From the IMG/VR virus record IMGVR_UViG_3300028591_000010, positions 42,374 to 106,373 of that record: 64,000 nt of DNA; one strand, written 5' to 3'. This document shows positions 3,076-21,841 of the stretch, in pieces. A program made the translations under genes and the position numbers. The DNA is from a virus. Taxonomy: Duplodnaviria > Caudoviricetes. Under the pieces are notes generated by a model that searched no databases, was not told the DNA's origin, and saw only the letters and a program-made list of their open reading frames with translations. The number at the start of each line of letters is the position of its first letter. The stretch's first letter is position 1.

Positions 3076-3457
3076 TTTGTCTCTGACTTAAAAGTTCTTG
3101 GATCATTTCATCTACCTGTTTATGATTTCTCACCAGATAGCAGCGCATCTTGGAATGATGACGCTTTAAATAATATTTGAAGAGTTTCCATCTTAAAGGG
3201 AACGAATCTCCCATAAGACCTTTACATTCTACTATAAATCCACGACCTACAAAGTCTGGTAGATATGTAATAGCACGTATTTTCTCTCCTAAAAACTCGA
3301 ACTTAGGTAACAGAGTAAAATGCTTTGGCTCATATTTCACAGGTATTCCTGCTTTCATAAAAGCTTCATAAGTATAGAGTTCGAGTTTACTCCTAAAATG
3401 GATTCCATACTTATCGACCGCTGTCGCATTTTTTACTCTGCTTTTAGAGGATGTCAT
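3050..3457 (-). CDS. Endonuclease/Holliday-junction resolvase (DUF1064, T7 endonuclease I-like)
   Basis: FRSKLE, YEP, TYLPDF and VECKG motifs. Confidence 0.8.
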   Translation of the reverse strand: MTSSKSRVKNATAVDKYGIHFRSKLELYTYEAFMKAGIPVKYEPKHFTLLPKFEFLGEKIRAITYLPDFVGRGFIVECKGLMGDSFPLRWKLFKYYLKRHHSKMRCYLVRNHKQVDEMIQELLSQRQNGKDKENK

Positions 3458-3701
3458 GAACAGCGTCTTTTACGCCATCCTTATCGAATCGAATAGCGGA
3501 TACAATCTTACCGTCCTTACGGAGTGCAAGATAACTATTGTCTTCCTTTTCAAACTTCTTATCGATAGCAATCACCTCATAACCGTCTGACATCTGTTTA
3601 ATGATGTAAGGCTGTTTGAGATATCTGTATGCTGCATATGCGGCTCCTGCACCAGTACATATCATACCAAGCAGAAAACCGAGGATCAAAGTCTCAATCA
3701 T
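3444..3701 (-). CDS. Small membrane-anchored hypothetical protein
   Basis: N-terminal hydrophobic helix; overlaps both neighbours in the operon. Confidence 0.65.
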   Translation of the reverse strand: MIETLILGFLLGMICTGAGAAYAAYRYLKQPYIIKQMSDGYEVIAIDKKFEKEDNSYLALRKDGKIVSAIRFDKDGVKDAVHDIL

Positions 3702-4668
3702 ATCGCTTTACTGTATTTGTAAACCAAGTTTTCACTTGGTCATAGTTATTATTCTTTACTGCGTCTGAAATATCTTTCGATTTAAATTTCTTGTGGACAA
3801 ATATAGCGTCAAATTTATACTGTTTACTGTAATCACGAGCTTTCAACATTCCTGTTGCATCTCGATCATACAATATAACAATATGTTTCCATTTACGTCG
3901 TAATGACTTAATTATATCTTCTGGTATAAAGGTAGTTTCACTTGATGCAGCTATAGCATTAAATCCCATCTCATACAAACACATCACGTCTTTCAACGAT
4001 TTTGTGATTATAAGCAGATTTCCCCCCTCATAGGGCAATTCGGCTAATCCCTGAACGTGCCGATTTGTCAGATTGGTACGCCATTTAGTATACTTTGAGG
4101 CTAAAGGACGATAAATCTTAAACTTATCATAAACCTTATATGCATACATAGGACTATCTTCTTTGTAGGTTCCTCTGACGACTCTATTACATAAGAAGTA
4201 TTTAATGCTAAATACATTGAATCGCTTTAATGTATCAATTGATATATGAAATTGCTTCCAATATCTCTTGTCTGCTTCAGTAAACGGTTGTCGAACTATT
4301 CCGATATCAGTATCTTCTCTAGGAGTATATGATCGCGTCACTGTTGCCGCACTGCTGGTTGGATTAGATCGCCGTACGATCCTCAGCAATTCTTTCTCTA
4401 GTTCTTCTCTCGTTTGTATTCCTTTATAGAGCTTCATAAACTTGAGAGCATTACCTGCTACTCCAGTTCCATGATCTTTGAAGAATAATGTACCTTCTTT
4501 ATTTGGAAATATACAAAAAGAGGGCATCTTATCATCACTTCGTAAAGGACTATTCATTAACTTACCAGGCTTAAATGGGCCTAAATAATATGAATAGATT
4601 GTATAGTCATCCACTTTTGACAACAAGTCTCTAAGACTCATTGTGATTGCTGTTTTTGTGCTATACAT
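3694..4668 (-). CDS. DNA primase (crAss-type, TOPRIM)
   Basis: SPLRSDDKMPSF...FKDHG N-terminal domain; ITKSLKDVM, LYDRDATG and KDISD TOPRIM motifs. Confidence 0.85.
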   Translation of the reverse strand: MYSTKTAITMSLRDLLSKVDDYTIYSYYLGPFKPGKLMNSPLRSDDKMPSFCIFPNKEGTLFFKDHGTGVAGNALKFMKLYKGIQTREELEKELLRIVRRSNPTSSAATVTRSYTPREDTDIGIVRQPFTEADKRYWKQFHISIDTLKRFNVFSIKYFLCNRVVRGTYKEDSPMYAYKVYDKFKIYRPLASKYTKWRTNLTNRHVQGLAELPYEGGNLLIITKSLKDVMCLYEMGFNAIAASSETTFIPEDIIKSLRRKWKHIVILYDRDATGMLKARDYSKQYKFDAIFVHKKFKSKDISDAVKNNNYDQVKTWFTNTVKRYD

Positions 4669-4691
4669 GGCTTATAAGCTCTTTTGTATTG

Positions 4692-4752
4692 TTGTGTGTA
4701 GGGATTCGAACCCTATTACGTAATTTTTCATACGCAGCCTCCAGGATCACAC
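4692..4752 (-). ncRNA. Degenerate tRNA-like element upstream of primase
   Basis: T-arm TAGGG-TTCGAAT-CCCTA, GTGTG/CACAC acceptor-like pairing and one internal hairpin; no canonical D arm. Confidence 0.55.
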
Positions 4753-5026
4753 TTCAGGTCATCTTAAACTCTTTTGTATATTCTTTGTCTTTTACACAGT
4801 TTGAATAAAACTTCCAACCCACATATCACCATGTTTATTTCTAAGAGGAGTGATATGATTTGACCTCTTCGTTAGGGGCTGACAGGATTAACCTATCAGT
4901 CCTCCACCACTGACCGTTTTCATCAACCACATATAGATATGAGGACAACTCCATCTCAATTTATAGAAATAAAGTTTATCCGTCCTATCTAAGTGGATGT
5001 ATCTTATGATTTCCTTTTCAGGTATA

Positions 5027-5623
5027 TCAAAAAGGCAGGTCGTCAGCACCTGTTGAAGTCTCAGTCACCGGAGTAGCTGCTACGCTAAGCGGATCTGCAG
5101 CAGGCTCGTTGTCTGCTACAACTGGACGCTCAAGAAGATCGTTCTTCCAGAGCTTAATCTGAGACTCTGTTACACTCATAGGTTCAACGAATGCACCAAG
5201 AGAACTTACTTTCGTAAATCCTTTCTTGTCATAAACCACCTTAAGACGAAGAGGAGTAGCCAACTGAACTGTTTCCAGCTGAGTTTTAACCCAATTTATC
5301 ATTTCAATAAACGAGCTACCTTCAAACTCATTATGACTACCGTTAACAGAATCTATTACCTGCAGAATACGACCGAACTGCTGATTATCGCGCTGCTGAA
5401 GTTCTTCATCAGTCTTAATCCACATATTCTTCTCGTTCTTCCACTCAGTCATAGTTGCTGTCTGACCCTGTTCATTCTCAAAGATTATCTCCAAGAAATC
5501 ACGTCCTTGAGGTGTTTTATTTACATTAACTTCTTTTAAAGTTACATTTTCGTTGATGCCTACAGGCATATAGGAGCTTGTAAACTCCTGATTATTTGTT
5601 GTTGCTGTTTTTGTACTATACAT
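5027..5623 (-). CDS. Single-stranded DNA-binding protein (crAss-type)
   Basis: Acidic flexible tail ending GADDLPF; lies between the annealing ATPase and primase. Confidence 0.75.
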   Translation of the reverse strand: MYSTKTATTNNQEFTSSYMPVGINENVTLKEVNVNKTPQGRDFLEIIFENEQGQTATMTEWKNEKNMWIKTDEELQQRDNQQFGRILQVIDSVNGSHNEFEGSSFIEMINWVKTQLETVQLATPLRLKVVYDKKGFTKVSSLGAFVEPMSVTESQIKLWKNDLLERPVVADNEPAADPLSVAATPVTETSTGADDLPF

Positions 5624-5649
5624 AATTTCCGATATTGACTCTAAGGTTC

Positions 5650-6393
5650 TTATTCAGGTTTATAAACACGATCCCAATAGGTTGTTATAGATCCATCATC
5701 GTTTCCGGTAGCAATGACAATGTCCTTGCCCGCGATATGTCTAGCGCGAGCTTCCATGATCGTTCCATCTCCTCCGGATTTAAAACTAATGTGCGTTTCA
5801 TTATCCTTCCGATAGACGTATCCGACTGCATCAGCCATTCCGCAGACAATCTTTCCAAGTTTTCCAACGAGGTCGATTTCTTTGGCGTTGACCTCTTCGC
5901 CATCTTTATCGGTGATACTATCTTTGACATGTCCTATTAGGATAAACTCGTCACACAAATCTTTGAACATATCGATTACTTTCTTTACAGCATCGCGTAA
6001 GTACTTATAACCTGCACCTCTTGCGAGTGTTGTAACATCAGTACCTTTCCAGTTTTTACCCAGTTCAGTCTGCTGATACAATTTGCAAGCATAAGACATA
6101 CATATGTCCTCTAATCGTGTAGCATTATCTATTGTTATATGTTTATAGAAATTATGTCCTACCTCATCGTTCTTAGCTCTAATGGCTTGTGCTATCTCTC
6201 CCAGATCATTGATGGTACGTGCCTGAACAGCTAGCGCATCTATGAACTGAGATCCGCCTTCAAGGTCTATGATGAGATTATTCTCCAACTGTGCTACACA
6301 CGAAGTCTTACCAGACTTAGGAAGTCCGTATAGGATTAAATATGTAGGATTAGTAGAGACTGCAGGAACTTTTTGAGTAGGTAATGTTATCAT
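5650..6393 (-). CDS. AAA_24/Sak4-like ssDNA-annealing ATPase
   Basis: YGLPKSGKT, IIDLEGG, ITIDNAT, ILIGH and ADAVGY motifs; adjacent to SSB. Confidence 0.8.
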   Translation of the reverse strand: MITLPTQKVPAVSTNPTYLILYGLPKSGKTSCVAQLENNLIIDLEGGSQFIDALAVQARTINDLGEIAQAIRAKNDEVGHNFYKHITIDNATRLEDICMSYACKLYQQTELGKNWKGTDVTTLARGAGYKYLRDAVKKVIDMFKDLCDEFILIGHVKDSITDKDGEEVNAKEIDLVGKLGKIVCGMADAVGYVYRKDNETHISFKSGGDGTIMEARARHIAGKDIVIATGNDDGSITTYWDRVYKPE

Positions 6394-6414
6394 ATTGACT
6401 TAAAGTTCTAATAA

Positions 6415-6909: not shown

Positions 6910-6954
6910 AATTCAGCCTAAATTTAAAAGTTAATACTTGTCATCCACAACGTA

Positions 6955-7878
6955 TTAGCTTTCAATCAGATTATTAAACATAAGGTCATTCTCGAATTCA
7001 AGTATACAAGGTTTACCTGCATCTCTGTTTTTCAACATATGCATGTAGACTTTGTTTTGTGTAGGTAGATGATTCGGACCATATTCTTGTATGTTCAAAA
7101 TCTCTGGTCTATGCATTACGAGCACATAATCACTCGCTTGAAACATTGCATCGGATGACGATAAATCGCTGCGCATTGGGTAATGACTCAGCGGATTGTT
7201 TATCCTTTCTGAAGATTCAATGTTTCTATTCATCTGTGCTATTTGCACTACTGACGTTAACGGGAACTTTTTAGCTTGTATGAAAACACGCTCAAGTTCT
7301 GCTGTTGTCTCTATTACAGAACCAACTTGTTTCGTCAGCAGAGTATGGTCATACACTATTAAGAAGTGCTTGCCCGTATCTTTCACATAGGTGAAATAGA
7401 ATTCATTTATAATACGTCTTACATCTTCAGGAGTACCTGGATTATCTACAAAATAGATAGGATATTCCTTTAGCTGATTAGATACTCTAATGACTTCCTT
7501 AAAGGTATTGTCATCGAGGTCCGTCTCCGAACTATACAAGGTAGAAGTCGTTTTACGAAGTTTATTCGAAAGCGTTCTTCCAACTTGCCTAAATCCAACC
7601 ATCTCTAATGAGAATGATAAGATGATTATATCTTCATTAGGATTCAAATCAATCACATCAGTAGTTAGCTCATTAACAAACGAGCTCTTACCGGAACCAG
7701 AGATACCAGCTATGGTATAAACGGTATTTGGTTCAATACCTCCCATACACTGCTTATTAAACTTAGACCACCTAGTTTTCAATGAAACAATATTATGTTC
7801 CCTTCTACCTCTGATATAGTTGATAGCTTCTTGAGCTACAACACTCATTGGACGTACTTTAGATGATATCTGTTCCAT
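6955..7878 (-). CDS. DnaB-like (SF4) replicative helicase, C-terminal-domain type
   Basis: AGISGSGKS, FSLEM, YDH, AQMNR, SDLSSSDAMFQASD and KNRD motifs. Confidence 0.9.
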   Translation of the reverse strand: MEQISSKVRPMSVVAQEAINYIRGRREHNIVSLKTRWSKFNKQCMGGIEPNTVYTIAGISGSGKSSFVNELTTDVIDLNPNEDIIILSFSLEMVGFRQVGRTLSNKLRKTTSTLYSSETDLDDNTFKEVIRVSNQLKEYPIYFVDNPGTPEDVRRIINEFYFTYVKDTGKHFLIVYDHTLLTKQVGSVIETTAELERVFIQAKKFPLTSVVQIAQMNRNIESSERINNPLSHYPMRSDLSSSDAMFQASDYVLVMHRPEILNIQEYGPNHLPTQNKVYMHMLKNRDAGKPCILEFENDLMFNNLIES

Positions 7879-8425
7879 AAGAATTTACTGCTATTTTGTT
7901 CGTATCTTCCATTTCTTCCTCGATGGCCTCCCATTGGCTTCTAGTGAGCCAATTCCACATAGTCATCATATAACTAAGGGAGCCTTCTCTCATGCGCTTA
8001 GACACCTCGTAGTCGAGGCATTTAATTATATGCTCTGCCATAGCGGAGCTTTTACCACATTTAGTATTGAAGAAATGCCGACATTTATTTACATTGGCAC
8101 GAAGATAGCTTTTAGTGCCATCTTTACGCATCACATATACTGGATACATATCGTAAAACAAGTCGAAATAGCTCTTATTAGGAGTTATTGCTTTATTCAA
8201 CTTGTCTGTTGGTTGATATGTCACAGAGTCTCCTCTCTCTATCGACTCGACTAATAAATTATCGATTAAGTATGATATCTCGTCGTCGCTGATTAGGCTG
8301 ACAATCTTGCGGACGTCTTGATATGATGGTTGATTCTTATCCAATACCATACTTAAGAACAGTAATTGATTTGAGTTTAGCTCTGGAAATTCATCCAAGA
8401 GCTTAGTGTTTACTTCAATAATCAT
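7859..8425 (-). CDS. Putative replication initiator/helicase-loader-like protein
   Basis: FDLFYDMYP and WL..QWE motifs resemble phage replisome organisers; lies between polymerase and helicase. Confidence 0.5.
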   Translation of the reverse strand: MIIEVNTKLLDEFPELNSNQLLFLSMVLDKNQPSYQDVRKIVSLISDDEISYLIDNLLVESIERGDSVTYQPTDKLNKAITPNKSYFDLFYDMYPVYVMRKDGTKSYLRANVNKCRHFFNTKCGKSSAMAEHIIKCLDYEVSKRMREGSLSYMMTMWNWLTRSQWEAIEEEMEDTNKIAVNSYGTDII

Positions 8426-8454
8426 ACTGTTGACTCGGGGTTCTAAGTTGGTTA

Positions 8455-10320
8455 CTAAAATAATGATAGCTGTTGTTCAGTGAAGTCCGCTATCACTTTT
8501 TTGGCTTCACTGATATAGTACCGATAGTTAATCTTTCGATCTTCTATCTTGCGATCATCAAACTTATTCAGGATTGTTACTCCTGATTTTGTTAACATAT
8601 TTGTTCGGTCTCTATCGTCTTCAGGATTATCCTTGAAGAGATATGCTCCGTTTGTACTTGCGTAAAATCTATTGATACGTTGTACAGGTTTATCACCATG
8701 TATAACTTTAAACTTCTTGTCTACTGCTTGTGACATCAAGAAATCACGGATTTCTCTATCCTTCTCAATAGTTTCTGTCACTGGAATATGATGAACAAAG
8801 TAATTTATAACTGCCTTAGGTATGACTACAGGTGCTAGTCCCTTACCTAATTTGTTTTTAGTTATAAACATACCTTTTTCTTCTATCTCACCATTCTTCA
8901 AGACCCCAAAGTAGTCGTTGATAGCGTATTGATAGAATGCTTCGTACTCATCGGTTTCAAACATAAGCTGTGTAATCTGTTCAACCTCTGAGATGGCTTC
9001 CTGAATTCCTTCTCTAAGGCTGTTTTTAGCCCTGTAGACGACGCCATCGGTGTTGACCTGTATAATCTCACATCCGAGCTCTAAAAGCCTGTCTACGAGC
9101 ATTAAAAGGATTAGCTGACCGTTTATTCTAATCTTAAAAACATTGAACGGATCATACATCCAGCTTACCTCCTGTTGCATTTTACCTGTAGGAGAATTAA
9201 GCACGATCTTTAGAAACAAGTTCTTAATCTTTTGACCTGTACGTTTTGCTTCTACTCGCTCAGCATATAAGTCAGCGAATATATCACAAAAGATTTTTCC
9301 TAAGTGGCGAGGTCCCCATTGATATTTAATCAAGAAGGACGGATACATCGAAGTCACATCTGCGTGACCTATAAACTCGTCATCTTTAGGTAGGAATATC
9401 TGCGGTGTGTGGATGGAGTGTATACCACCCACGCCTACAGAGTATACCACGTTTGAGAGAACAAACTTCTTCTCATAGCCTTTGCGTTCTTTAGAGTATA
9501 CGACTTGTTTCTTCATATCTTCTAGAACGTCTTGTAACTTTGGATTTTTGTATTTTATATATGGCAATATGACATCCTTCAATGGAATATAATCCATTGG
9601 AGAACGCATCTCCTTTATAACATTTTTAGGAATACCTGTTCTCTTAGAATATTCTTCTAACAGAAAGGTTTCTGCCATCTTCACACTATCCATAGACAAA
9701 CAGTCTATGCCGTGTTCTTGTTCAATGAACAAACGCAATTCAATATCTGGTTTCAAACGGTTTAATAACTCTTCTGTTGAATCTACGTCGTTTATATTAT
9801 ATGCAATCATCTCATCGATGTCATCATCTTTGATAGGAGCATTAAAGTCACCATCATACTCCTGCACATTTCTATAATGCATTGTCACCTGCATAGTCTT
9901 AAGACCAACACGTAGTTTTCTACTGAATTGCATTGTGAGCAAATCCATCGATTCGAAGTAATGTGCATACTTCCATCGCTTAATCCGCTCGTATTTTTCA
10001 TCCTCCGTTTCCACTATATATTTCGATAAGTTGTAAAGAGACTGACATATCTTTAAATAAGACATATTAGACAACTTATAATAGTAATCTATTATATAGT
10101 TAATTACAACATCATCATAGTGATGATTATTATAACCACAGAACATCTTTTCAGAACTATCATAATAGAAAAAATCAACTAGACTGTCTAGCTGATTCTT
10201 TCTATTAGATATTTCGAATTTATGTATTTGTCCACTTTCAGTATCTTTACAGCAACAGTGGAATGCGTTAGGGAAGATCTCTACGTCATATACGTAGACT
10301 CGTCGATTTCGTATCCACAT
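8455..10320 (-). CDS. DNA polymerase family B with 3'-5' exonuclease
   Basis: ExoI YDVE, GYNNHHYD and YNINDV; polymerase motifs DVTSMYPS, KIVLNSPTGK and NTDG. Ends QQLSLF followed by TAG TAA. Confidence 0.93.
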   Translation of the reverse strand: MWIRNRRVYVYDVEIFPNAFHCCCKDTESGQIHKFEISNRKNQLDSLVDFFYYDSSEKMFCGYNNHHYDDVVINYIIDYYYKLSNMSYLKICQSLYNLSKYIVETEDEKYERIKRWKYAHYFESMDLLTMQFSRKLRVGLKTMQVTMHYRNVQEYDGDFNAPIKDDDIDEMIAYNINDVDSTEELLNRLKPDIELRLFIEQEHGIDCLSMDSVKMAETFLLEEYSKRTGIPKNVIKEMRSPMDYIPLKDVILPYIKYKNPKLQDVLEDMKKQVVYSKERKGYEKKFVLSNVVYSVGVGGIHSIHTPQIFLPKDDEFIGHADVTSMYPSFLIKYQWGPRHLGKIFCDIFADLYAERVEAKRTGQKIKNLFLKIVLNSPTGKMQQEVSWMYDPFNVFKIRINGQLILLMLVDRLLELGCEIIQVNTDGVVYRAKNSLREGIQEAISEVEQITQLMFETDEYEAFYQYAINDYFGVLKNGEIEEKGMFITKNKLGKGLAPVVIPKAVINYFVHHIPVTETIEKDREIRDFLMSQAVDKKFKVIHGDKPVQRINRFYASTNGAYLFKDNPEDDRDRTNMLTKSGVTILNKFDDRKIEDRKINYRYYISEAKKVIADFTEQQLSLF

Positions 10321-10347
10321 GACTCAAAGGTTCTTTAGTTTATACTA

Positions 10348-10468
10348 GTAGAATGGTGAGGAGTCGAACCTCACATCACCGATTGGAGGGAAACCTTATT
10401 AAAGGAAATATTGAGTTTCTCGAATATCTTTACACCATCCCCGTTCTTACCTTTAAATGACATTCTAC
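10348..10468 (-). ncRNA. tRNA-like element (acceptor stem plus T-arm) with ~85-nt internal domain, upstream of PolB
   Basis: GTAGAATG/CATTCTAC stem stacked directly on GTGAGG-TTCGACT-CCTCAC. Confidence 0.65.
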
Positions 10469-12288: not shown

Positions 12289-12587
12289 ATTGATTATGAT
12301 GTTTTTAAAAGTTAAAATAATTTGTTAATTGTACGCGCAAACCAATTCATGCGCTTGAGCATATAGACTATATTATTGTGGTCATTATAGACACCAATAA
12401 CTTTGTAGTCTTTTGACAGCTCTTCGAGACGAGTATTACTGATAATACCGTCACTGGTTATTTGGATATATTTTTGTTTCATATTGATTACGATTTAAAA
12501 GTTTTGGGAAATATTTTTGTGATCGGTTACGGGAACGATCCGCTCATACATAGAAATGTATGCACCAACATTCCGATCGGTTTTCGC

Positions 12588-13142
12588 TTATATAGCGAAA
12601 TCCTGCTCAAACATAGTAGCAGTCTTATCGTCAAGAGTAATCTCAGTATTGTTATTGAAATTCTCCATATTAGTGTCAAACTTATTAGCCTTCAACTGCA
12701 AATCCTTAATCAGAGCTGCAATCTTAGCACTTGTGAAAATCTCCTCCTTACCAATATTCTTAAGACCCTTCTGAGCCTTAGTCTTCTGGTCAAGCGTAGG
12801 AATCATCTTAAGCTGTGCAATAGCCTCCTTCATCTCACAAGCCATGAAGATGCTATAATTGTTGGTCTTCTTGAAATCCTCAGCATTGAACGTATCAATA
12901 CCCATATTTAAATAAAACAACATACCTTTAATATACACCAGCTTCTCTGCCATCTGAGTAATCTCGTTATAGAGAGCCTTCAGATCGTGTGTACGGAAGC
13001 CATTCTTAATCTCTTTCTTAGAGAGCAGATTCTCTGCCTTAATATAGCTCCAATACTTCTTCTTCTTACTATTAATATCATCACGCATATTAATAATCTT
13101 ACCTGAGTTCAACTTAATTGATTTCGTCATATATATAAACAT
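12588..13142 (-). CDS. Hypothetical coiled-coil protein (start may be ATG 13130)
   Basis: Intact ORF with helical composition. Confidence 0.7.
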   Translation of the reverse strand: MFIYMTKSIKLNSGKIINMRDDINSKKKKYWSYIKAENLLSKKEIKNGFRTHDLKALYNEITQMAEKLVYIKGMLFYLNMGIDTFNAEDFKKTNNYSIFMACEMKEAIAQLKMIPTLDQKTKAQKGLKNIGKEEIFTSAKIAALIKDLQLKANKFDTNMENFNNNTEITLDDKTATMFEQDFAI

Positions 13143-13241
13143 TTGATTTAGTTAGACTTCGTGTTAATTAAATTGAATTCGAGTATCATCTACCTGTGAC
13201 TTATAGCAAATCGCTTCACTATAAATCTAAACAAATCTCTG

Positions 13242-13606
13242 TGAGGGCAGAATCCCGCAAGATTCTACCCTCAAACTCCCGCAAGAGTTATAGACGAGAT
13301 AAGTTTTATGAAAATAGCATTATCGACAATGACCTAGATATATTCATTGCTCAGTTCATCAAGATGTTATTATACTACCGCAATAATATAACAACTAAAT
13401 CCCGCAAGATTTATTAGTCTCGACTAATATGAGCTCCGACTACACCCATTTCAAGGTCAATAAATGCTCTACCAGTTGCGTCTGGAAAACGATACGTATG
13501 AGTACGTGTACGAGTATTAACGTTAACGACAATGTTTGTGTCATTGGCAGGTGTCTCAGTGACTACAACCCTTGAGCCCGACTTCCTCTGGTCTCCCGCA
13601 AGAGAC
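13242..13606 (-). promoter_or_regulatory. Cluster of five RNA hairpins with invariant UUGCGG loop
   Basis: Hairpins at 13242-13273, 13274-13289, 13366-13395, 13396-13413 and 13591-13606. Stems differ in sequence, the loop is identical, and G-U pairs form only on the minus strand. Confidence 0.8.
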
Positions 13607-14004
13607 GATTGTCCGTCACCATTACACACATGTCTATAACAATCCATCAGACGATTAACTACATCGTTATACTTTTCCGCACGTTGTGCTTCCTTAGCTA
13701 TTTCAACACTCAAACCTTCTTCCAATGCTTTCGCATTTAATCCTGAAGAAAGGTCAACCAGGGCATCCCATACAGCGAGAGCCCAACTTTCAAATGTAAG
13801 TTCGCGCTTACATCCGATCAGCTGATTCCAGAACCAATGAGTTGTTTCACCAAGAATCACGGTTCCTTCTACATCGTCAATACGATACGTCTTGTATGAT
13901 CTACCCTCTTTGCCAGCAGCTTTTACCTTATTGGCAATAGTTTCATTGTTCATCAGAATCTCCATATATTTTACGGAGTCTGGAACGAGGGCTGTTTTCG
14001 GCAT
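13414..14004 (-). CDS. Hypothetical protein
   Basis: Intact 196-aa ORF starting 2 nt after the upstream stop. Confidence 0.75.
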   Translation of the reverse strand: MPKTALVPDSVKYMEILMNNETIANKVKAAGKEGRSYKTYRIDDVEGTVILGETTHWFWNQLIGCKRELTFESWALAVWDALVDLSSGLNAKALEEGLSVEIAKEAQRAEKYNDVVNRLMDCYRHVCNGDGQSSLAGDQRKSGSRVVVTETPANDTNIVVNVNTRTRTHTYRFPDATGRAFIDLEMGVVGAHISRD

Positions 14005-14006
14005 AA

Positions 14007-14660
14007 CTATTCAGTTACGTGAACATTTACAATTGCATCTGCGTTTACGTCAGACTTAATATCGAGATTATCGATCTTAGACTCTGACCACTGACGCTTG
14101 TACTCAGCAGCCTTACGGAGATTTTCCGTAATAGCAGTCTCTACAGACTGACGCTGACTCTGAAGAGTCTTAATCAGCGCATCGATCTCTGCCAGAGTAC
14201 CCTTATTGGCCTCATTCAGGACAGATACAGTTTCGTCAACTGCGACAAAGAAGTTCTTACCTGTGCCACGCAGAGCATCATTGATAGCATCGCGCATAGA
14301 CTTCTCTACAACCAGAGGGTTAGTGCCATTCAAGGGGCACTTGAAGTCACTTTCGCCATTATCCTTCAAGTTAACAGCAATACATACACGCTGGGAGTCG
14401 CCAAGACCTTCCGTCACATAGTTGACACCTTTGATGTCAATCAGACGAATGGTGTAACGCTTTGGCGACTGGTTCACCATCAAAGTATTACTTGCAGTAG
14501 CAAGATTCTTAGCCTCTTCAAACTTGTCCTTACCACCAGGCCATGTGGGCTGACATTCTACTTTACCAAAAGTCTTACCGAGAAGACCACCGATGAAACT
14601 CGCCGACTGACGAGTGCTTGCAATCACCTCATTGAGGTTAATTTCTACGTTTTTATCCAT
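14007..14660 (-). CDS. Hypothetical protein with C-terminal coiled coil
   Basis: Intact 217-aa ORF with biased codon usage. Confidence 0.75.
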   Translation of the reverse strand: MDKNVEINLNEVIASTRQSASFIGGLLGKTFGKVECQPTWPGGKDKFEEAKNLATASNTLMVNQSPKRYTIRLIDIKGVNYVTEGLGDSQRVCIAVNLKDNGESDFKCPLNGTNPLVVEKSMRDAINDALRGTGKNFFVAVDETVSVLNEANKGTLAEIDALIKTLQSQRQSVETAITENLRKAAEYKRQWSESKIDNLDIKSDVNADAIVNVHVTE

Positions 14661-14679
14661 TTTTACTTATCCTTTTTGA

Positions 14680-16800
14680 TACCGTGGTTGATCCACCAAC
14701 GATAAGTTAGAATATTTCCTACTTCAGGGTGTAGGTTCACCGCTATAGAGAGATTTACGTCCGGCTCGGCGGCTCTATGTCTGGACGGTGTTCGTCATAC
14801 TTATTTTTACTTCGGTAGCTGTGCTAATGGGAAGCTTCGTTTGCTTACTAGATTGTTACACTTCTATATTCCTTAAAATGAAGCTCAACTCATGTAACGG
14901 GAGCGAAATGGTATCGCATGTATACCCATAGACTAATAATATTCGAAGCTTTAAATGCCGAATGTGTAAATTCAATTTCTAAGTTTTCTTGAACAAGATA
15001 TTTATTGTTTGTAAAATATTCACTAAATACTTTCCCTTACGGTACTAAATCCAGAGTTTATACTTGTCCGTTGGCAAAATTTTGGCTAGGCCAACTAATG
15101 CTCATAGGACCCCACAAAAATTCGCGTAATTTCTTCGTTAGTATATTTCCCGTTGTCTATCGAATCATTACTGCGACGATTGTTGCTTAACCACAGATTT
15201 TCTCTGATGTTGCATGGTTTAAGGCCCACACTACTATTTACCTATATTCCCTTTTAATCATGACGTGCGTGTGTCATTGCACGGGACGTGCTTCATTATC
15301 GAACGATCTAGGCTCCAGAACCAAATAACCTTACGGCTTGTTTTCTTCTATTGGCATATTGCTTGCCTCATTGTTTATAGTGCACGAATACTGGAGGAAT
15401 TCCACCTCATACGTCTAGATTTATCACCCACCTAAAGATTCATTTTTATCGGTTTCCATTACTACTACTTACACACTAGGTATAAGGTTCATGCAGGTCG
15501 CTTTACCCCTCCTAGACAGGGAGGTGATTACTAATTTCACGATAGGCTGCCTTGCATCTGGATTTCTCCTTTGTCACGTATATTGCTTCATGGTCCGAAC
15601 GCACCATCTAGATTTGCTGTCTAGACTTCTGGTCTACCATCTTGCTACTTGCTTCTCAGGAACGGTTGGCACTCGAACTTCCCGACTTCAACTGCTTCTC
15701 ATACAACGAGAGCTAAGGTCTTCTACACCTTTTTCTATTATTACGTCTATCGGGGGACATCAATTTTTGTTAAACATGTTAATTAACTCTACGGCACGTT
15801 TTTCTACTCACATTTAGTTTCATCAGAATCTACTACATCGATATGTTGTTCACGTATAGTATACAGTTTACTACTCTGCCGGGACTATATGATATAGTAA
15901 CATAAGGAATCATCTGATTATATTCATGCTTTTGAGGAAGCGGACTTAAGTCTGTACTGGTGTGTACAGGGTCGGATCAACTCCCTAGATAAGTAAATTT
16001 GGCTGTCACGTTGCCATCGTACCACAGGACATTTCCTTTTACTGTGGGTCCTTCTATAGAATCATACTCGCTTACCAGTACTATCTACCTTTGAAATAGC
16101 GTTTCTACGCGCGCTTCATCCGCGTATTGTAGGCACCTGTCCTACAAGTTAAGTAGTGCATCTACCCGCTGTCCTTTTACTTTTATATACCGCATAAATG
16201 ACGAAAGCCTGGCGGTCAACATTTTCCTCAGTACCCCATCCCCGGTGACCCATTGAAACCTTAGCTTCAAAGGTGGTCATTCTGTCTCGACACAGAAAGG
16301 ATTTCTTCAAGGACCATATTTACGATATGGCGCAGACAGTCAAACCTTCTGCTAGGCACATATGTTATTTCTTCATCCCTTTATACACGCTGTGGAGGCG
16401 TGAAACACTAGATTACAGCTAATTGATACATCATTACAAGTCATGGTCAAATGTAATGTTGCGACTCCTGTCTCGTTATACTACCCTTATGTATCCTCAG
16501 ATAGCATGTCGAATACGGCATCATTCTGCGCTTCTTGCGACTTACTCGTTTTTATGGTAATCCCTCACCAAACGGTTCTCAGGGGCCAAAGGACTTGATA
16601 CAAACGCTCTGTCCTCTTACTATGAACTTTTCTGTTATGGAGTATGCATAACATCATAGCATTTCATCCTACCTTTTGGATATCTCACCTTTTGAGAAGG
16701 CTAACATATTCTCGGATCAAGTTATACTCTTCGCACCTGGGCTAATGAGACCCATCTGAAATGTGCTAAGCAGGTGCCACTCTGGCTGGAGCCACAGTAA
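14680..16800 (-). ncRNA. ~2.1-kb non-coding, hairpin-rich block; candidate large structured RNA(s)
   Basis: No minus-strand ORF of 60 aa or more in the track; TAA/TGA in all minus frames where sampled; many short inverted repeats. Strand is inferred from the flanking genes. Confidence 0.4.
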
Positions 16801-16802
16801 TC

Positions 16803-17303
16803 CTACTGTGACTCCCCTGTGGAGTGATTAACGTTTTTAGAGTATACAACTTCACCGTCGACAGTGAGCTGTATAGCAGATTCTTTAGAAGAACCTACAT
16901 CACACTCTCCAGTTTTCTCCTCACGAACTGGAGCTCCTTTGTTGCTAACAGTATCCACAGATGTCGGCTTTGGAGTAAGCATCATCCATGAATAGTCTGT
17001 CACTCTCGCGGGCGAGCTAACCCTTGAGAATTTTGTTTTAATAACTAGGATCTGCGGACGGTCCACATACGCAGTATCGTGTATGTACAGAGTATCTCTG
17101 CTGACCGTTGAATCCATTTGTACCGGCTGCTTCAGGGATGCCTGAAGGTCGTATGGCAACTTAGATATCTCCAGTGGAGATAACGTAGCTGCACTGAGAG
17201 TCTGATGCTTAGCAAAAGAACTCCCTGTACTATTTGACATTGCCAGGAATCCGCCAGCTAAGGCGAATGCAATGCAACAAATAATTGTTGTTACGTATTT
17301 CAT
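16803..17303 (-). CDS. Membrane-anchored/secreted hypothetical protein (TAG stop)
   Basis: N-terminal signal/TM segment; Ser/Thr/Pro-rich. Confidence 0.7.
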   Translation of the reverse strand: MKYVTTIICCIAFALAGGFLAMSNSTGSSFAKHQTLSAATLSPLEISKLPYDLQASLKQPVQMDSTVSRDTLYIHDTAYVDRPQILVIKTKFSRVSSPARVTDYSWMMLTPKPTSVDTVSNKGAPVREEKTGECDVGSSKESAIQLTVDGEVVYSKNVNHSTGESQ

Positions 17304-17343
17304 CTTTGATAGATTAATTTACCTAGTTGCCGTAGTATACAGA

Positions 17344-18732
17344 TTACTTCTGCTCTTCAGCAGGAGTCTCTGCCTGGGCAATTTCGGTGATGTTACTTTC
17401 TGAGTAAGCAATCGACTGAGAAAGAGGATCACGGAACAGGTTAACGATGATGCCGGCACGCTGCTGTACGTTGTGCAACAGTGAATCCATATCAACCTTA
17501 GTCAGATCAGTACCCTTATAATAGGTGTTGATGATCTGGTCAACAATCAGGTGAGCACGCTTGTAGTCAGCGTCGGTGTCATCCTTCTTGTTGAAGTTGT
17601 CGATGAGGTTGTCAACGTCCTCGATAGAGGGGTTGTTCATACCAATAACAATGCCGTTCATCTCATTGATAGTGTTGTTACATTTCTCAATGTAATCCTT
17701 GTGGGTTTTGATGTCAGTCTTTGCAATGTTCACCTCAGTTGCATCTTTGTTTTCCTTAACAATTTCCTCTTTCTTCTTGATGATGCGCTCATTCTCCTTA
17801 ATTCCCTTCTCTGCCTTAGAGATTTCCTCTTTACAGGACCAAGTGATCATGATACGGACCAAGTCGGCAATGAAGTCGTTGGTGAGAGCACCTTTGGTGT
17901 CGATCTTATCCGCATTGCGGCGATACATACAGAAAGGACCAATGATTGTACCAACGTTGACGAAGTTCTTGCGGAACAAGCCAGCGTTACCAACCAGACC
18001 AACGGGACACGGACCTACGACAGCAGCCATTTCAGAGAGAAGGTCAGAATAGCTCTTATTCTTCACCTCTTCAAGAGCAGCCTTCTTGTCTTCAGCCTTG
18101 TTTGCCTGAATAGTCAGATAACCACGATAGAAATCGGTAGCACGACGCATGCGGGCAATAATGCCCTCATTACCTCTACTGATAAGCAGAGTCAACGATG
18201 CAGCGAGTTGCTCGGGACTAGTAACTTCTGCAGGGTTGGTCACACCTTCCAACTTCTCTTCGGCAGCAATCTTCTTCTTCATGTCATCACTTACCTTTAC
18301 GGCAGTGGACGGAATCTGAACATCACCCTTCTCATTAGGAGCGGGCAAAGCCTTCACATCAATTGCTACGCCAGTGAACTCGCTGATGGCGTTTACAGCT
18401 TCTACCTGGTTCTTCAGCATCATTTGTGCAAATGGGCTCTTATTTTCATGAACCTCAATAGCCAATACTGTTGCAAAGCCAGTCAATGTGAATACATTGA
18501 TACTGTGAATCGTGTCTTCAGACAGATTATAATATGCAGCAGCGTTAGGATTGTCGTGGATCATACCTTTCAAGCCATTCAACGCCGTTACAGTCGCATC
18601 GGGGCTTAATCCACTCTTTATCCCATTTACCACTGTCTTAACAGCTGGATTTTCTACTTTTGGAGTCTGCTGTGCTGCAGCCTCTTCTGCAGCCTGCTGT
18701 GCAGGACTCTTCTTGTTATTCTTGTTTGCCAT
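17344..18732 (-). CDS. Large hypothetical protein, probably highly expressed
   Basis: 462-aa ORF with strong codon bias. Confidence 0.8.
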   Translation of the reverse strand: MANKNNKKSPAQQAAEEAAAQQTPKVENPAVKTVVNGIKSGLSPDATVTALNGLKGMIHDNPNAAAYYNLSEDTIHSINVFTLTGFATVLAIEVHENKSPFAQMMLKNQVEAVNAISEFTGVAIDVKALPAPNEKGDVQIPSTAVKVSDDMKKKIAAEEKLEGVTNPAEVTSPEQLAASLTLLISRGNEGIIARMRRATDFYRGYLTIQANKAEDKKAALEEVKNKSYSDLLSEMAAVVGPCPVGLVGNAGLFRKNFVNVGTIIGPFCMYRRNADKIDTKGALTNDFIADLVRIMITWSCKEEISKAEKGIKENERIIKKKEEIVKENKDATEVNIAKTDIKTHKDYIEKCNNTINEMNGIVIGMNNPSIEDVDNLIDNFNKKDDTDADYKRAHLIVDQIINTYYKGTDLTKVDMDSLLHNVQQRAGIIVNLFRDPLSQSIAYSESNITEIAQAETPAEEQK

Positions 18733-18815
18733 TTTGATAACGGTTTTAAAGATTAAATACTTGTAGCTGGTTAGACTACTTAACTATAACCAATTGCCGA
18801 AAGTAGACGTTTCTT

Positions 18816-19220
18816 TCAAGAATCATCTATAATTGCAACCGAGTTTGGTGGATTCGGCAAGATATGGATGTATCCCTGAGTCACCTCAGAGACATTACTC
18901 AAGGTAAAATTACGCTCATAAGCAGGTACTATTGCCTGACTCACAGGTTCTGAAGTTACCTTCTTAGGTGCTGGTAGACCATCATCTGCTAAAAGGTATA
19001 CTAATGAACCTGATGAAGCCGCCAGCCCCTGTGTGGGCTGTACCTGCATGAACGTCGTCTTACCTTCATCTTTAGCGAAGCTATCATGGATAAGCTTAAC
19101 GCCTGCAAAGCCCAACACATAACATGTGAGCAATGCCCAGAACAGCTTATTACTTTCATTGTATCGAGCAATGAGAGTAATTAATACTATTCCGAGAATG
19201 AAAGTGAACAATGTCAACAT
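18816..19220 (-). CDS. Two-TM membrane protein immediately downstream of the ECF sigma gene (anti-sigma-like position)
   Basis: Two N-terminal hydrophobic helices; starts 3 nt after the sigma stop. Confidence 0.65.
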   Translation of the reverse strand: MLTLFTFILGIVLITLIARYNESNKLFWALLTCYVLGFAGVKLIHDSFAKDEGKTTFMQVQPTQGLAASSGSLVYLLADDGLPAPKKVTSEPVSQAIVPAYERNFTLSNVSEVTQGYIHILPNPPNSVAIIDDS

Positions 19221-19223
19221 AAC

Positions 19224-19793
19224 TTAAACGTTAATTTTGGTTTTTAATTTGCGTCTAGTTCTCGACAACGTTGACTTTATAGTTCCTGTTGGGATTTTTA
19301 ACGCTTTACTAATCTTTTTAACTGGTAAATTATCGACATAAAACAACTCAAAGATCTTACGAGTGACCTCTGGTAGTTTTTCGAATTCAGCGACAACTTG
19401 TTTATACGTCAAATGATTGACTAGATCATCCTCCGCTGATACTTGAACATTTTTAAGTGACAGTCTATCACCTTCATCTTCAAGTACAAGTCGCTTATTA
19501 CGCGTCTCACGTAAATAATCTACAGCTGTATGATTAGCTATAATTCTCAGCCAACCTCCAAAGGAGTTGTAAGCTGTGAATGTCGAGAGTTTATCATACA
19601 CTTTAAGAAATACAATATTAGCGATATCTTTCGCTTCATCCATATCTCTAAGATATTGGAATAACACACTTTCAACAAACGGTTTGTATCTTCTATAGAG
19701 TGTATTAAAAGCAAGCTCATCGCCTGCTTGCGCCTTTTTGATTAGACCAATTTCAACATCGGTGATTCTAGGATTCTTCATAATCAAAAACAA
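19224..19793 (-). CDS. ECF-type (sigma-70 group 4) RNA polymerase sigma factor
   Basis: Region 2 AQAGDELAFNTLY...DEAKDI...FGGWLRIIANH.AVDYLR; region 4 ISKALKIPTGTIKSTLSR. Confidence 0.92.
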   Translation of the reverse strand: MFLIMKNPRITDVEIGLIKKAQAGDELAFNTLYRRYKPFVESVLFQYLRDMDEAKDIANIVFLKVYDKLSTFTAYNSFGGWLRIIANHTAVDYLRETRNKRLVLEDEGDRLSLKNVQVSAEDDLVNHLTYKQVVAEFEKLPEVTRKIFELFYVDNLPVKKISKALKIPTGTIKSTLSRTRRKLKTKINV

Positions 19794-20004
19794 TTAGCCG
19801 GTTATTAAGGTGTCACTCCTGTAACAGACGGTGCTGCATATAGTGTAAGAAGTATGAGCAGGGTTCAATTGGACTTATCTTTAGGATTAGAGTACCTTCA
19901 CTAGTTGCCAACCATCGCTCTGTACTCCCAGATCGACTGCTACGAATCTTTCATACTTCTTAATTGTGGGCAGTTGCTATCAAAAGCTACCTCAAGGGAC
20001 TGCC

Positions 20005-20427
20005 CTAGAACGGGAGATCTTCAGTATTTATCTCTGACATCTCCTGCCTTATGTTAGAAGTTAAGTTATGATGTATCTTTTTCGCGATGTCATCTGGTAC
20101 ATACCAATCGTCTACTAGCTTATTTAATGTACTTGTAAATATACGAATTCGTACATCTATAGCACGATAATCCGTTATTCCAATAGCTAATACAATACGA
20201 TCGTTAACCCACTTTAAGAGATTTCTTAAATGTGAGTTTGTACAAATGGCATATATAACATCTTCATCTAACTTCTCGTCTCCAGAAACAAATATTCGTG
20301 GACATTCTAATGCGCAATTGCGCCTTGATTGTATGATACGCAACTGGGCGTACTGTTCACTAACTTTTGTTTCATCAGTAATTGTGACTCCTAAGAGTCT
20401 TAAATAGTAGGAAAATATACTAAACAT
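20005..20427 (-). CDS. Hypothetical protein with SSB-like C-terminal tail (EDLPF), TAG stop
   Basis: Intact 140-aa ORF ending TEDLPF-TAG. Confidence 0.7.
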   Translation of the reverse strand: MFSIFSYYLRLLGVTITDETKVSEQYAQLRIIQSRRNCALECPRIFVSGDEKLDEDVIYAICTNSHLRNLLKWVNDRIVLAIGITDYRAIDVRIRIFTSTLNKLVDDWYVPDDIAKKIHHNLTSNIRQEMSEINTEDLPF

Positions 20428-20433
20428 ATTCCT

Positions 20434-20931
20434 TTAATACTTACCTTCTATACAACATATCAAGAATTCTGCTAAGTTATCAACATACTGATACTTTGCT
20501 TCTTTCTCCTCCTGCGTACAATTGGGAGAAGGTAATAGCCAAGAAAGATAATCTCGAATGATTTCAATCTGTATATCAAAATCATCTTTACCTTTCTGTT
20601 TAGAGATACTGTATGCATGTTCAATGCACTGAAATTCTTTCATGAACCATTTAACCCATTTAGAGATACGTTCCCAATATTCTTTTTCTTCATTGGTTAA
20701 ATCGTCCCAATTAATAGTTTTATCAAACTCAAATTGATATTTACCATGTTCAGCAATGCCCAATGCTATACGAGTAGCATTATTACGCTGATCTTTATCA
20801 CGATATATACCAATAAAATTTGAATAAACATGATCTATCCACTTTTCTTTAGCTTTACGCCATTTAAGTGCATAGTTTACCATCTTGGGACAACGGTCCC
20901 GTAACATTTCTTTGTATCCTAATTTCTTCAT
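20434..20931 (-). CDS. Hypothetical protein
   Basis: Intact 165-aa ORF. Confidence 0.7.
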   Translation of the reverse strand: MKKLGYKEMLRDRCPKMVNYALKWRKAKEKWIDHVYSNFIGIYRDKDQRNNATRIALGIAEHGKYQFEFDKTINWDDLTNEEKEYWERISKWVKWFMKEFQCIEHAYSISKQKGKDDFDIQIEIIRDYLSWLLPSPNCTQEEKEAKYQYVDNLAEFLICCIEGKY

Positions 20932-20935
20932 ATTG

Positions 20936-21009
20936 TGATTCCTAATGGATTCGAACCATTGACCGACAGATTAGAAATCTGTTGCTCTATCCAGCTGAGC
21001 TAAGGAACC
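20936..21009 (-). tRNA. tRNA-Arg(TCT)
   Basis: GGTTCCT/AGGAATC acceptor, D-loop AGCTGGATA, ACAGA-TTTCTAA-TCTGT anticodon arm, TTCGAAT T-loop. Confidence 0.9.
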
Positions 21010-21082
21010 GTTACGTCAGCGGCTACTATTATTCACCGCTGACTACTATTACAAATCGTTCATTAGACATTGCCTCACGGCA

Positions 21083-21130
21083 GGAGTGAGGTAGGGATTC
21101 GAACCCCATACTCCAACATAGTCCTCACTC
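21083..21130 (-). ncRNA. Mini-tRNA element directly 3' of the tmRNA coding piece
   Basis: GAGTGAGG/CCTCACTC stem with T-arm TGGGG-TTCGAAT-CCCTA; short linker with no D or anticodon arm. Confidence 0.7.
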
Positions 21131-21350
21131 TGTCTGGGCACTTAGGTAGCCCGTAACACCGACTTTACGCTGCCTCCTTGAGGCCCGTATAGTCTGCAAT
21201 GTTAATATTGCCAGTTAATTTTATATCAGAGCGCTTCACGACTTACCGTCTACCGCTGTCAAATCCAAATAGGCCCAGATACTCATGTTAGACTGGTGGA
21301 CCTAGAGGGATTCGAACCCTCGTCCAAACGGCTTATTCTCAGTCACGCTA
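21131..21350 (-). ncRNA. ssrA: Circularly permuted (two-piece) tmRNA; tag peptide (A)GNINIADYTGLKEAA
   Basis: Acceptor piece ...GGACGAGGGTTCGAATCCCTCTAGGTCCACCA ends at 21294. After a 17-nt intervening segment the coding piece starts GGGCCTATTTGGATTTGAC at 21276. The acceptor stem has G3-U70; the tag ORF 21212-21165 follows TTAACT. Outer boundaries are approximate. Confidence 0.88.
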
Positions 21351-21553
21351 AGATTCTTTTGATGTGATGTTGTCAAATCATGCTACATCTCTTGTGAACT
21401 CTATGATGATCAGTCACAGAATTCGATTTAAGGCCATTTTCAGCCGTTCTAAGGCGTTTTCTAACCTCTAATGGGTAGCTAATCCATAAGCGGTTATTAA
21501 ACGCTTCAAAACGGCTTTTTGGGACCCCATAAAAAGCACATTGCCCTACTACT

Positions 21554-21841
21554 GACTCTAAGGTTCTGAATAGAATATGCTTGCATTCTTGATATACAAT
21601 GCAGTGTCAATATGTTGATACAATCTCGTACTGTAGCACCGGCTCTCAGGCTCGTACATTGTAATTTTTGATCAAATGCCCACATATTATTACACCGTGT
21701 GGACAGTGGCAGTTCTCCGCACGTGGCTCTCAGGCTCTTGTGACAGATGTTAATTCACCCGTATCTAATACCCAATTCTATAGGCGATGCCATCATCTTT
21801 TGAGATTTACATAGATTTAGACGTGGCTCAAAGGCTCTTGT
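21554..21841 (-). repeat. Non-coding array of four AGARCCT(N)2GAGYC-type motifs, 84-100 nt apart
   Basis: Copies at 21554-21567, 21641-21654, 21725-21738 and 21825-21838. Two extend to 21-nt near-identical repeats (21721-21741, 21821-21841). Confidence 0.75.

Follow-up and report, generated by a model that had tools for sequence, protein, structure and literature searches.

A predicted two-fold symmetric mini-hairpin at replication-gene starts and in a RAGATH-22/20-like array of a Suoliviridae phage: a candidate RNA operator with a multi-site RNA partner

To what kind of control does a short motif belong when it recurs, always on the same strand, at the start codons of phage replication genes and again four times in non-coding DNA? 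The question is raised by a 64,000-nt stretch (hereafter the window), which corresponds to bases 42374-106373 of the 106,373-bp phage genome recorded as IMGVR_UViG_3300028591_000010. An earlier inspection of the letters and predicted reading frames of this DNA (the sequence-only reading) had proposed a translational regulon with a sponge RNA and, as the alternative, DNA operators with the non-coding copies acting as origin iterons. In the current study the motif is described as a 13-15-nt mini-hairpin with one unpaired base in each arm, which is tied by its position to start codons and which also occupies the hairpin tips of a structured RNA array. The explanation that we prefer, and to which we assign a probability of about 0.45, is that it constitutes an RNA operator through which the loading of ribosomes is blocked, and that the array RNA is its partner with several sites.

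The nearest named relatives of the phage are Suoliviridae crAss-like phages, among which cr272_1 (Buhlduvirus) has approximately 76% nucleotide identity across the replication module, while cr131_1, Bohxovirus and Dulem virus 42 are likewise close. The crAss-like phages rank among the most abundant viruses of the mammalian gut, and to our knowledge almost nothing is known about the timing of their gene expression. The motif lies in a single long gene module on the minus strand, running from approximately 32170 down to 777, which contains small open reading frames (ORFs) without known function, transfer RNAs (tRNAs), a permuted transfer-messenger RNA (tmRNA), an extracytoplasmic function (ECF)-type sigma factor gene at 19224-19793, 2.1 kb devoid of ORFs, and the genes for replication, which specify a DnaB-like helicase, an AAA_24/Sak4-like ATPase, a Toprim primase, an AAA ATPase, a PD-(D/E)XK exonuclease and a DNA polymerase. 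In phi14:2, a model crAss-like phage, the whole replication module belongs to the early class and is transcribed by an injected virion RNA polymerase that prefers single-stranded DNA, for which a promoter motif was not found (bioRxiv 10.1101/2020.03.07.982082).

All ten copies on which the sequence-only reading was built were located on the minus strand, and the distances of six of them to the adjacent ATG (9, 0, 13, 3, 6 and 0 nt) are as it had given them; among the ten, the copy at 21641 is without the leading A and reads CGAGCC at its start. The pattern AGARCYNNNRAGYC, with its loop fixed at 3 nt, has nine matches in the window, all on the minus strand, while dinucleotide shuffles gave a mean of 0.47 and a maximum of 3 (100 runs). 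When loops of 2-3 nt are permitted, the whole genome contains 12 matches, 11 of which are on the minus, early-gene strand within a single 19-kb span (window positions 3085-21838); an equal spread over both strands, which the sequence-only reading had named as fatal to its proposal, is not seen. A plus-strand match at genome position 5643, inside a small ORF, and GGAACTATAAAGTC at 19273, which codes for the sigma region-4 helix-turn-helix, were rejected as false positives. Copies at 14763-14776 and 18938-18951 had been overlooked, as had an arm-swapped copy at 1270-1283 that brings the gene-start copies to seven:

1270-1283, minus strand: AGAGTC-ATT-GAACC, with swapped arms, 1 nt before the ATG (1268) of ORF 777-1268 (ORF163)
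3085-3098, minus strand: AGAACT-TT-TAAGTC, 9 nt before the ATG of the AAA ATPase gene 2293-3075
4669-4682, minus strand: AGAGCT-TAT-AAGCC, abutting the ATG of the Toprim primase gene 3694-4668
5637-5650, minus strand: AGAACC-TTA-GAGTC, 13 nt before the ATG of ORF 5027-5623
6397-6409, minus strand: AGAACT-TT-AAGTC, 3 nt before the ATG of the AAA_24/Sak4-like ATPase gene 5650-6393
8432-8444, minus strand: AGAACC-CC-GAGTC, 6 nt before the ATG of ORF 7859-8425
10321-10334, minus strand: AGAACC-TTT-GAGTC, abutting the ATG of the DNA polymerase gene 8455-10320

The copy at 1270-1283 sits within the 3' end of the exonuclease gene and that at 3085-3098 within the 3' end of a DUF1064 gene, the latter site being shared with cr272_1, Bohxovirus and others. 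Concerning the genes themselves, ORF 7859-8425 is ScpB-like or a replisome-organiser in related records, the acidic ORF 5027-5623 (ORF198), taken by the sequence-only reading for a single-stranded DNA-binding protein, is without a family match, and the polymerase, assigned to PolB by the sequence-only reading, is without a Pfam or PDB sequence match and appears in related records only as 'DNA polymerase'. The searches of the literature did not return a description of the motif.

One formula fits the element in every lineage, namely 5'-(A)G-X-a-b-c, a loop of 2-5 nt and c'-X-b'-a'-C(A), in which G:C is fixed at the outer of the four pairs, the three inner pairs may covary freely, and each arm carries one unpaired base X, both X always being the same base (A in this phage). 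Strand and pairing were counted in 83 relatives' loci (denoted by L numbers) using a relaxed pattern that left the four variable stem positions free, while positions relative to genes were counted in approximately 100 relatives. The relaxed pattern has 467 matches on the gene strand versus 78 on the other, all four Watson-Crick combinations occur at both variable position pairs, and the two pairs are Watson-Crick in 114 and 113, respectively, of the 119 start-proximal copies. G:U pairs occur in genuine copies and in a conserved hairpin that neighbours one of the array copies, but A:C is absent both from the start-proximal copies and from this hairpin, which indicates a fold on the sense strand and thereby points to RNA. 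Orthologous sites differ by double compensatory changes, as is seen at the Sak4-like site, which reads GAACT/AAGTC here, GAGCT/AAGCC in cr131_1 and GAACC/GAGTC in Dulem virus 42, with compensatory variants present in L018 and cr124_1 also. The base that follows the motif is usually a purine, being A in 61-86% of copies.

As predicted from these sequences, the mini-duplex is two-fold symmetric with two flipped-out bases, and this symmetry would account for several peculiarities of the copies. It is because of it that 'ideal' copies are hairpins and direct repeats at once (GAGCC..GAGCC and, in cr124_1, GTATC..GTATC), that the arm-swapped form GAGTC..GAACC is usable at the L070 polymerase start and at 1270 here, and that the L018 lineage repeats even the flanking bases (AGAGCCT-AT-AGAGCCT). 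Symmetric copies are frequent in the array (26 of 64) versus a single case among 115 gene-start copies.

The tie to start codons is evident from the relatives, where 122 of the 238 unique copies are followed at 0-15 nt by the ATG of an ORF of 50 aa or more, 47 of them directly, as against 3% of random positions; the enrichment near starts on which the sequence-only reading depended is therefore borne out. Under the general pattern, the 0-14 nt bin contains 154 copies and each of the next three bins 16-31. At two genes the pairing may reach the start codon itself, since the ATACA/TGTAT (UGUAU) flanks of the primase site lengthen the stem over the UG of the AUG, while the AUCAU/AUGAU flanks of the Sak4-like site carry the extended stem across the AUG. 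In motif-free relatives the genes simply abut, and in L035 the polymerase stop overlaps the next ATG; here a hairpin-bearing cassette of approximately 25 nt, absent in L035, lies between the polymerase gene and ORF 7859-8425.

The identity of X changes in concert from phage to phage. In cr124_1, X is T and the middle pair is U:A (GTATC..GTATC), a form with 12 matches on one strand only (controls 0-1), and its copies occupy homologous places, i.e. the array, the site before the ORF217 homologue, the Sak4-like and ATPase starts, and the start of the sigma gene. Copies of GTGCC type are found in cr55_1 and in the phage behind L058. The most telling comparison is that of the L035 and L058 phages, whose array flanks are almost identical, yet which carry GAGCC-TT-GAGCC versus GTGCC-TT-GTGCC in all three copies, such that six of six bulge positions differ (A to T); as a negative control, the in-ORF sequence GAGCC-AAATA-GAGCC (2003-2017 here) is unchanged in the T-type phage. 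A change of this concerted kind implies that all copies are recognised by a single reader, to which the two bulges are equivalent, and as the switch tracks the phage lineage the reader is most likely phage-encoded. It is probably a homodimer, the simplest reader of two like bulges. Closely related phages that differ only in the bulged bases of every copy also offer a route to its identification.

The non-coding copies belong to a structured RNA that is accompanied by the following features:

21380-21870, minus strand: structured non-coding RNA with four motif copies, directly upstream of the tmRNA
21825-21838, minus strand: array copy 1, AGAGCC-TTT-GAGCC
21744-21761, minus strand: conserved hairpin adjoining array copy 2, with loop AAUUAA and closing pairs UG/CA
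21725-21738, minus strand: array copy 2, AGAGCC-TGA-GAGCC, at the tip of the extended stem CAC/GTG
21641-21653, minus strand: array copy 3, GAGCC-TGA-GAGCC, after a conserved GATCAAAAA box
21554-21567, minus strand: array copy 4, AGAACC-TTA-GAGTC, after a conserved TCAAGAAT-containing hairpin
21165-21356, minus strand: permuted two-piece tmRNA gene (Rfam RF04321, 58.2 bits), downstream of the array

The array region has a folding z-score of -4.3 versus shuffles, and its motif copies, which stand at the tips of 3-7-bp extended stems, are spaced regularly (84-100 nt) in conserved units, each with its own conserved upstream block that is kept even where the motif type differs. What the sequence-only reading had called unique spacers is consequently conserved structured RNA and not arbitrary sequence. 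The hairpin at 21744-21761 shows compensatory changes in four of its six pairs over 13 phages while its loop, AAUURA, is invariant, and the same block is part of the consensus of two Rfam families, RAGATH-22 and RAGATH-20. The RAGATH-22 model (RF03098) matches window positions 21700-21848 (minus strand) at 23.9 bits (E value 0.019 in a 521-nt search), which is below the gathering score of 120.3 bits, so that the array is not a member by Rfam's rule; all three consensus blocks, i.e. the UGAAUUAACA hairpin, CAAGAGCC-U-UGAGCC and GCCACUG, are nevertheless aligned at high posterior probability. The syntenic RNAs of cr55_1 (RAGATH-22, 127.5 bits) and cr52_1 (RAGATH-20, RF03048, 119.6 bits) exceed the respective gathering scores. 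Judged by these alignments, the array is a divergent relative of the catalogued but functionally uncharacterised RAGATH-22/RAGATH-20 RNAs, and the notion that the system is undescribed consequently holds only in part: RNAs close to the array are already in Rfam, with no function assigned to them. Paper text naming RAGATH-22 was not found in the literature searches. In each of the lineages examined the array precedes the permuted tmRNA; it is also more widespread than the gene-start copies, and we conclude that it is the older part and the ancestral home of the motif.

Based on these findings, we propose that a trans-acting reader, most likely a phage-encoded homodimeric RNA-binding protein, would hold the two X bases in pockets, and that it would do so on seven or eight early mRNAs, namely those of the polymerase, the ScpB-like ORF, the Sak4-like ATPase, the acidic ORF198, the primase, the AAA ATPase, ORF163 and perhaps the sigma factor. 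Because the hairpin stands 0-13 nt before the AUG, which is sometimes within the stem, the bound reader would block ribosome loading and might thus lower replisome synthesis. The array RNA, in which three of the four copies are perfectly symmetric (GAGCC/GAGCC) and situated at hairpin tips, may compete for, store or deliver the reader, that is, it could serve as a decoy, a store or an assembly platform. The translational regulon of the sequence-only reading is retained in this proposal, since a base-paired one-strand element, a tie to start codons, an RNA array with the motif at hairpin tips and an implied co-evolving reader all agree with it, while its pure sponge is not. A wider proposal, which we put forward tentatively and with less assurance than the operator itself, is that Suoliviridae possess a self-contained post-transcriptional system of a new kind, in which an RNA-binding protein of no recognised family, probably a homodimer, would read the two-fold symmetric 4-bp duplex by its two flipped-out bases, the RAGATH-22/20 RNAs would be its multi-site partner, and the starts of replisome mRNAs would be its targets in some lineages.

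Several observations weigh against an operator that acts on ribosome loading. Arrays without gene-start copies occur in cr10_1, cr55_1 and the phages behind L035, L049 and L058, and the complete genome G002, which carries L058, has the motif only in its three array copies; it follows that the array is not merely a sponge, and that translational control of the replication genes is dispensable and is not the array's primary role. The gene-start copies of the L018 lineage are fully symmetric, and a division into weak mRNA sites and strong decoy sites does not therefore hold in general. Two copies (18938 and 14763), classed as lying inside ORFs, are far from any start. The 4-bp bulged stem is too weak to fold alone, and RNAalifold does not predict the mini-hairpin. 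An RNA-binding or regulator family was not found among 36 early-module proteins in Pfam or among 20 of them in PHROGs, and no alignment column of ten conserved replication-module proteins from 12 genomes cleanly separates A-type from T-type phages. The four RNA sequencing runs, finally, consist of assembled contigs only, which are unable to show 5' or 3' RNA ends; approximately 90% of the words of 12500-22400 are present in two sheep-gut metatranscriptome runs. Summed contig depth is higher over the bin with the array and tmRNA and over the 4941-5587 bin, a depth that cannot rank regions and from which nothing is drawn.

In the search for a reader, ORF184 (12588-13142) stood out as the sole small basic non-replication protein kept in all sampled lineages; a helical bundle is confidently predicted for it, with a predicted local distance difference test score (pLDDT) of 90.6. 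It has no meaningful match in the PDB (Foldseek best E value 0.35; VIA best Z 7.8, within the noise range for helical bundles), and the Atlas search gave nothing usable for ORF184 or for the array-adjacent ORF168. The ORF upstream of the array encodes a Lys/Glu-rich, probably coiled-coil protein that is conserved in all lineages and has no obvious specificity pattern, and none of the proteins of the T-type G002 is closer to those of other T-type phages than to those of its A-type relative G001.

The same structural and positional evidence could also be read as RNA processing, in which a site-specific endoribonuclease (of Cas6/Csy4-like or T4 RegB-like logic) would cut the early transcript before each cistron, thereby setting mRNA 5' ends near the AUG or inactivating messages, and would dice the array into units of approximately 85-100 nt. 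The purine by which most copies are followed (A in 61-86%), the regular 84-100-nt spacing of conserved array units and an early transcript built for processing, with its tRNA-like elements, tRNAs and two-piece tmRNA and with hammerheads in the same module of relatives, are all in keeping with such an enzyme, which concerted specificity switches would suit as well as they suit a binder. The only nucleases found in the early module, however, are the DUF1064/resolvase-like protein and the PD-(D/E)XK exonuclease, both from DNA-repair contexts, and cutting at copies inside upstream ORFs (3085, 1270 and 18938) would truncate messages; RNA contigs also span the copy at the polymerase start, though these may derive from DNA or from uncut precursor. 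We regard processing as unlikely, albeit the most probable of the rivals. That the motif is instead an N4-like hairpin promoter or start-site element of a phage RNA polymerase, with initiation at the purine that follows it and with leaderless or very short-leader mRNAs, is an improbable reading, despite the single-strand preference of the phi14:2 virion polymerase and the want of a promoter motif there. Phage polymerase promoters are short, confined to one strand, present in approximately 10-17 copies per genome, variable in number among relatives and prone to concerted switches of specificity, all of which is seen here. Yet the tolerance of G:T without A:C indicates a sense-strand fold, whereas N4 hairpins form on the template strand; a two-fold symmetric or arm-swapped site gives little directional information, a promoter would have no use for stems that take in the AUG and the codons downstream, and leaders of 2-15 nt would be unusual. 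The array, moreover, is a catalogued structured RNA with conserved inter-copy hairpins that promoters do not need, and it is located approximately 10 kb inside the early module and not at its head.

Control of termination is slightly less probable still, although a nut/boxB-like hairpin could load a factor onto the polymerase or modulate terminators and so assist in crossing the array, the tmRNA, the tRNAs and the 2.1-kb ORF-free region. At the ORF217-homologue site of several relatives the motif caps a 5-6-bp extended stem with a T-run behind it, the copies are concentrated within untranslated RNA and behind it, and lambdoid N/boxB pairs are also known to switch specificity among relatives. 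This account leaves unexplained the half of the copies that lie at most 15 nt before an ATG, many of them abutting it; the 14763 copy here is without a T-run, a boxA-like companion was not seen at the gene starts, and a scan for consensus terminators and promoters around the array stayed at background level. As regards double-stranded DNA sites, i.e. initiator or repressor operators with the array as origin iterons, some copies are indeed perfect direct repeats (GAGCC-N3-GAGCC) clustered in a non-coding region. Most, however, are not direct repeats and still keep their complementarity, every copy is on one strand, G:T is tolerated in the sense direction alone, an 8-bp repeat period would place tandem sites on different faces of the helix, and Rfam RNA families cover the array. 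Given also the covarying pairs and the arm-swapped forms, this alternative of the sequence-only reading is not supported and is very improbable.

Other candidates were tried and rejected. A promoter for the phage ECF sigma factor, suggested by the likeness of GAAC...GTC to ECF -35/-10 words, is at odds with halves that are 2-5 nt apart and with an element that abuts ATGs. In a kink-turn, with tandem sheared G.A / A.G pairs by a 3-nt bulge, position 2n would be C and not G, and lineages exist with T at 2b. Pairing between the array and the mRNAs fails in that the copies are identical and not complementary, and that the switching bases are unpaired.

The remaining copies, of which two are tentative, and a tRNA gene beside the tmRNA are as follows:

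14763-14776, minus strand: symmetric AGAGCC-GCC-GAGCC, 100 nt upstream of ORF 14007-14660 (ORF217), at the end of the 2.1-kb ORF-free region
18938-18951, minus strand: AGAACC-TGT-GAGTC, inside ORF 18816-19220
19764-19776, minus strand: tentative GAATC-CTA-GAATC, over codons 2-6 of the ECF-type sigma gene
4737-4749, minus strand: tentative degenerate TGATCC-TG-GAGGC with one U:G pair, upstream of a tRNA-like element in the gap 4683-5026
20935-21009, minus strand: tRNA-Arg

The flanks CGTCC/GGACG of the 14763-14776 copy can lengthen its stem. The 14 nt of the copy at 18938 recur without change, flanks included, in a relative that has 68% identity in its sigma factor. Over the same codons as the tentative sigma-gene copy, cr124_1 has its own type, GTATC-AGC-GTATC (L107:5007-5020), with an Arg codon changed from AGA to CGT; the copy is not conserved in cr131_1, cr272_1 or Bohxovirus. 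The tentative copy at 4737-4749 is present in locus L011 also.

A number of side observations were made in the same region. The ORF-free stretch at 14661-16802 (minus strand) extends for 2.1 kb without a convincing ORF in an otherwise packed early module, with the symmetric motif copy at its end, and the gap is kept in cr272_1, cr131_1, cr124_1, cr52_1, cr10_1 and cr55_1. A tRNA-like T-arm, GGTTCGA(A/C)TCC, is present in the gaps upstream of the polymerase gene (10355-10370, minus strand) and the primase gene (4683-5026, minus strand); neither is called by ARAGORN, and real tRNAs (Leu, Cys, Ser, Val) occur there in relatives. The primase and ORF 5027-5623 share their first seven residues, MYSTKTA, over nearly identical coding stretches of approximately 21 nt (4648-4668 and 5603-5623, minus strand), and both genes retain an MYS/MYD start in hairpin-free lineages. 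A second class of gene start carries the leader TTAA...TTTAAAA...TTATCAAA(A/G) abutting the ATG at 12288, 17303, 18732, 22372 and 23545 (minus strand); this leader, also found at L107:6028, L108:6041, L109:5339 and L110:6263 and conserved over three Suoliviridae subfamilies ahead of a gene of approximately 460 aa, is either a promoter or an A-rich initiation context of the Bacteroidota type. The early regions of relatives contain RAGATH-1 hammerhead ribozymes, RAGATH-9, -12 and -15 RNAs and, in cr55_1, a group I intron (matches at L002:83-189, L002:788-857, L004:2689-2757, L003:2092-2381, L003:2915-2993, L108:1400-1553, L109:490-668 and L110:2608-2852), none of which reached its gathering score in the window. 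On the plus strand, a tRNA with anticodon CTA (a TAG suppressor) is encoded at 34308-34382, which fits amber recoding of late genes, as the late plus-strand ORFs are fragmented under the standard code; a weak tRNA match at 47600-47702 (37.2 bits over 103 nt) is possibly intron-containing or otherwise unusual.

The element marks a defined set of early genes, comprising the whole replisome and perhaps the phage sigma factor, and links them to the RAGATH-22/20 RNAs, for which a function had hitherto not been proposed. If the RNA operator is real, nature would already provide orthogonal RNA-protein pairs in the A-type and T-type variants, which, should the reader be a small protein, would serve as compact orthogonal RNA tags. 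If the element were a promoter, it would explain how the crAss virion RNA polymerase finds the early genes, a question left by the phi14:2 work.

Among known systems, iterons and double-stranded DNA operators need no intra-strand complementarity, whereas here pairing is kept, and on one strand. The N4 virion RNA polymerase promoters are alike in being early-region hairpins of a phage whose own RNA polymerase is injected, and in having a specificity that varies among relatives, but N4 hairpins have uninterrupted 5-7-bp stems and 3-nt loops on the template strand and are few per genome and upstream of a leader; the element has bulged 4-bp stems, loops of 2-5 nt and a sense-strand fold, abuts ATGs and is embedded in structured RNA. 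In lambda nut/boxB, a conserved GNRA-like loop is combined with boxA at few sites, whereas the loop here is free, no companion box was seen at the gene starts and there are 12-15 copies per genome. The T4 RegA and gp43/gp32 autogenous operators resemble the present case more closely, being sites over the translation-initiation regions of an early replisome regulon that include the start of the polymerase gene itself; RegA sites, however, are unstructured, AU-rich and without a decoy RNA, whereas those described here are base-paired, and the Pfam scans of the 36 early-module proteins gave no match to the RegA family.

The layout of CsrA/RsmA with CsrB/RsmZ, a short motif at hairpin tips that is present several times in a non-coding RNA and again over the ribosome-loading regions of mRNAs, with a homodimer as the expected reader, recurs here in the four array copies on extended stems and the seven gene-start copies 0-13 nt before ATGs. 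It differs in that the motif is without GGA and that the array has only 3-4 sites and persists in phages without mRNA sites; a CsrA family protein (Pfam PF02599) was not found among the 36 early-module proteins, a scan that did not extend to the late module. The RAGATH-22/20 RNAs occupy the same genomic place, immediately before the permuted tmRNA in the early module of Suoliviridae phages, although the Rfam models span approximately one unit and not a 3-4-copy array, their curated structures are without the bulged mini-hairpin, and the tie to replication-gene start codons is not part of these families. The coat-protein operators of leviviruses (MS2, Qbeta and PP7) are likewise small hairpins in which a purine is bulged, and they are placed at the start codon of the gene that they regulate. 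In the present element, by contrast, the two special bases are both bulged, one on each arm of a 4-bp stem, the loop is free in sequence and length and many genes are targeted, and a levivirus-type coat-like protein was not identified. In MS2, the symmetric coat dimer places two operator adenines in equivalent pockets, and two identical bulges that switch together, as in the element described here, would fit the same equivalent-pocket logic.

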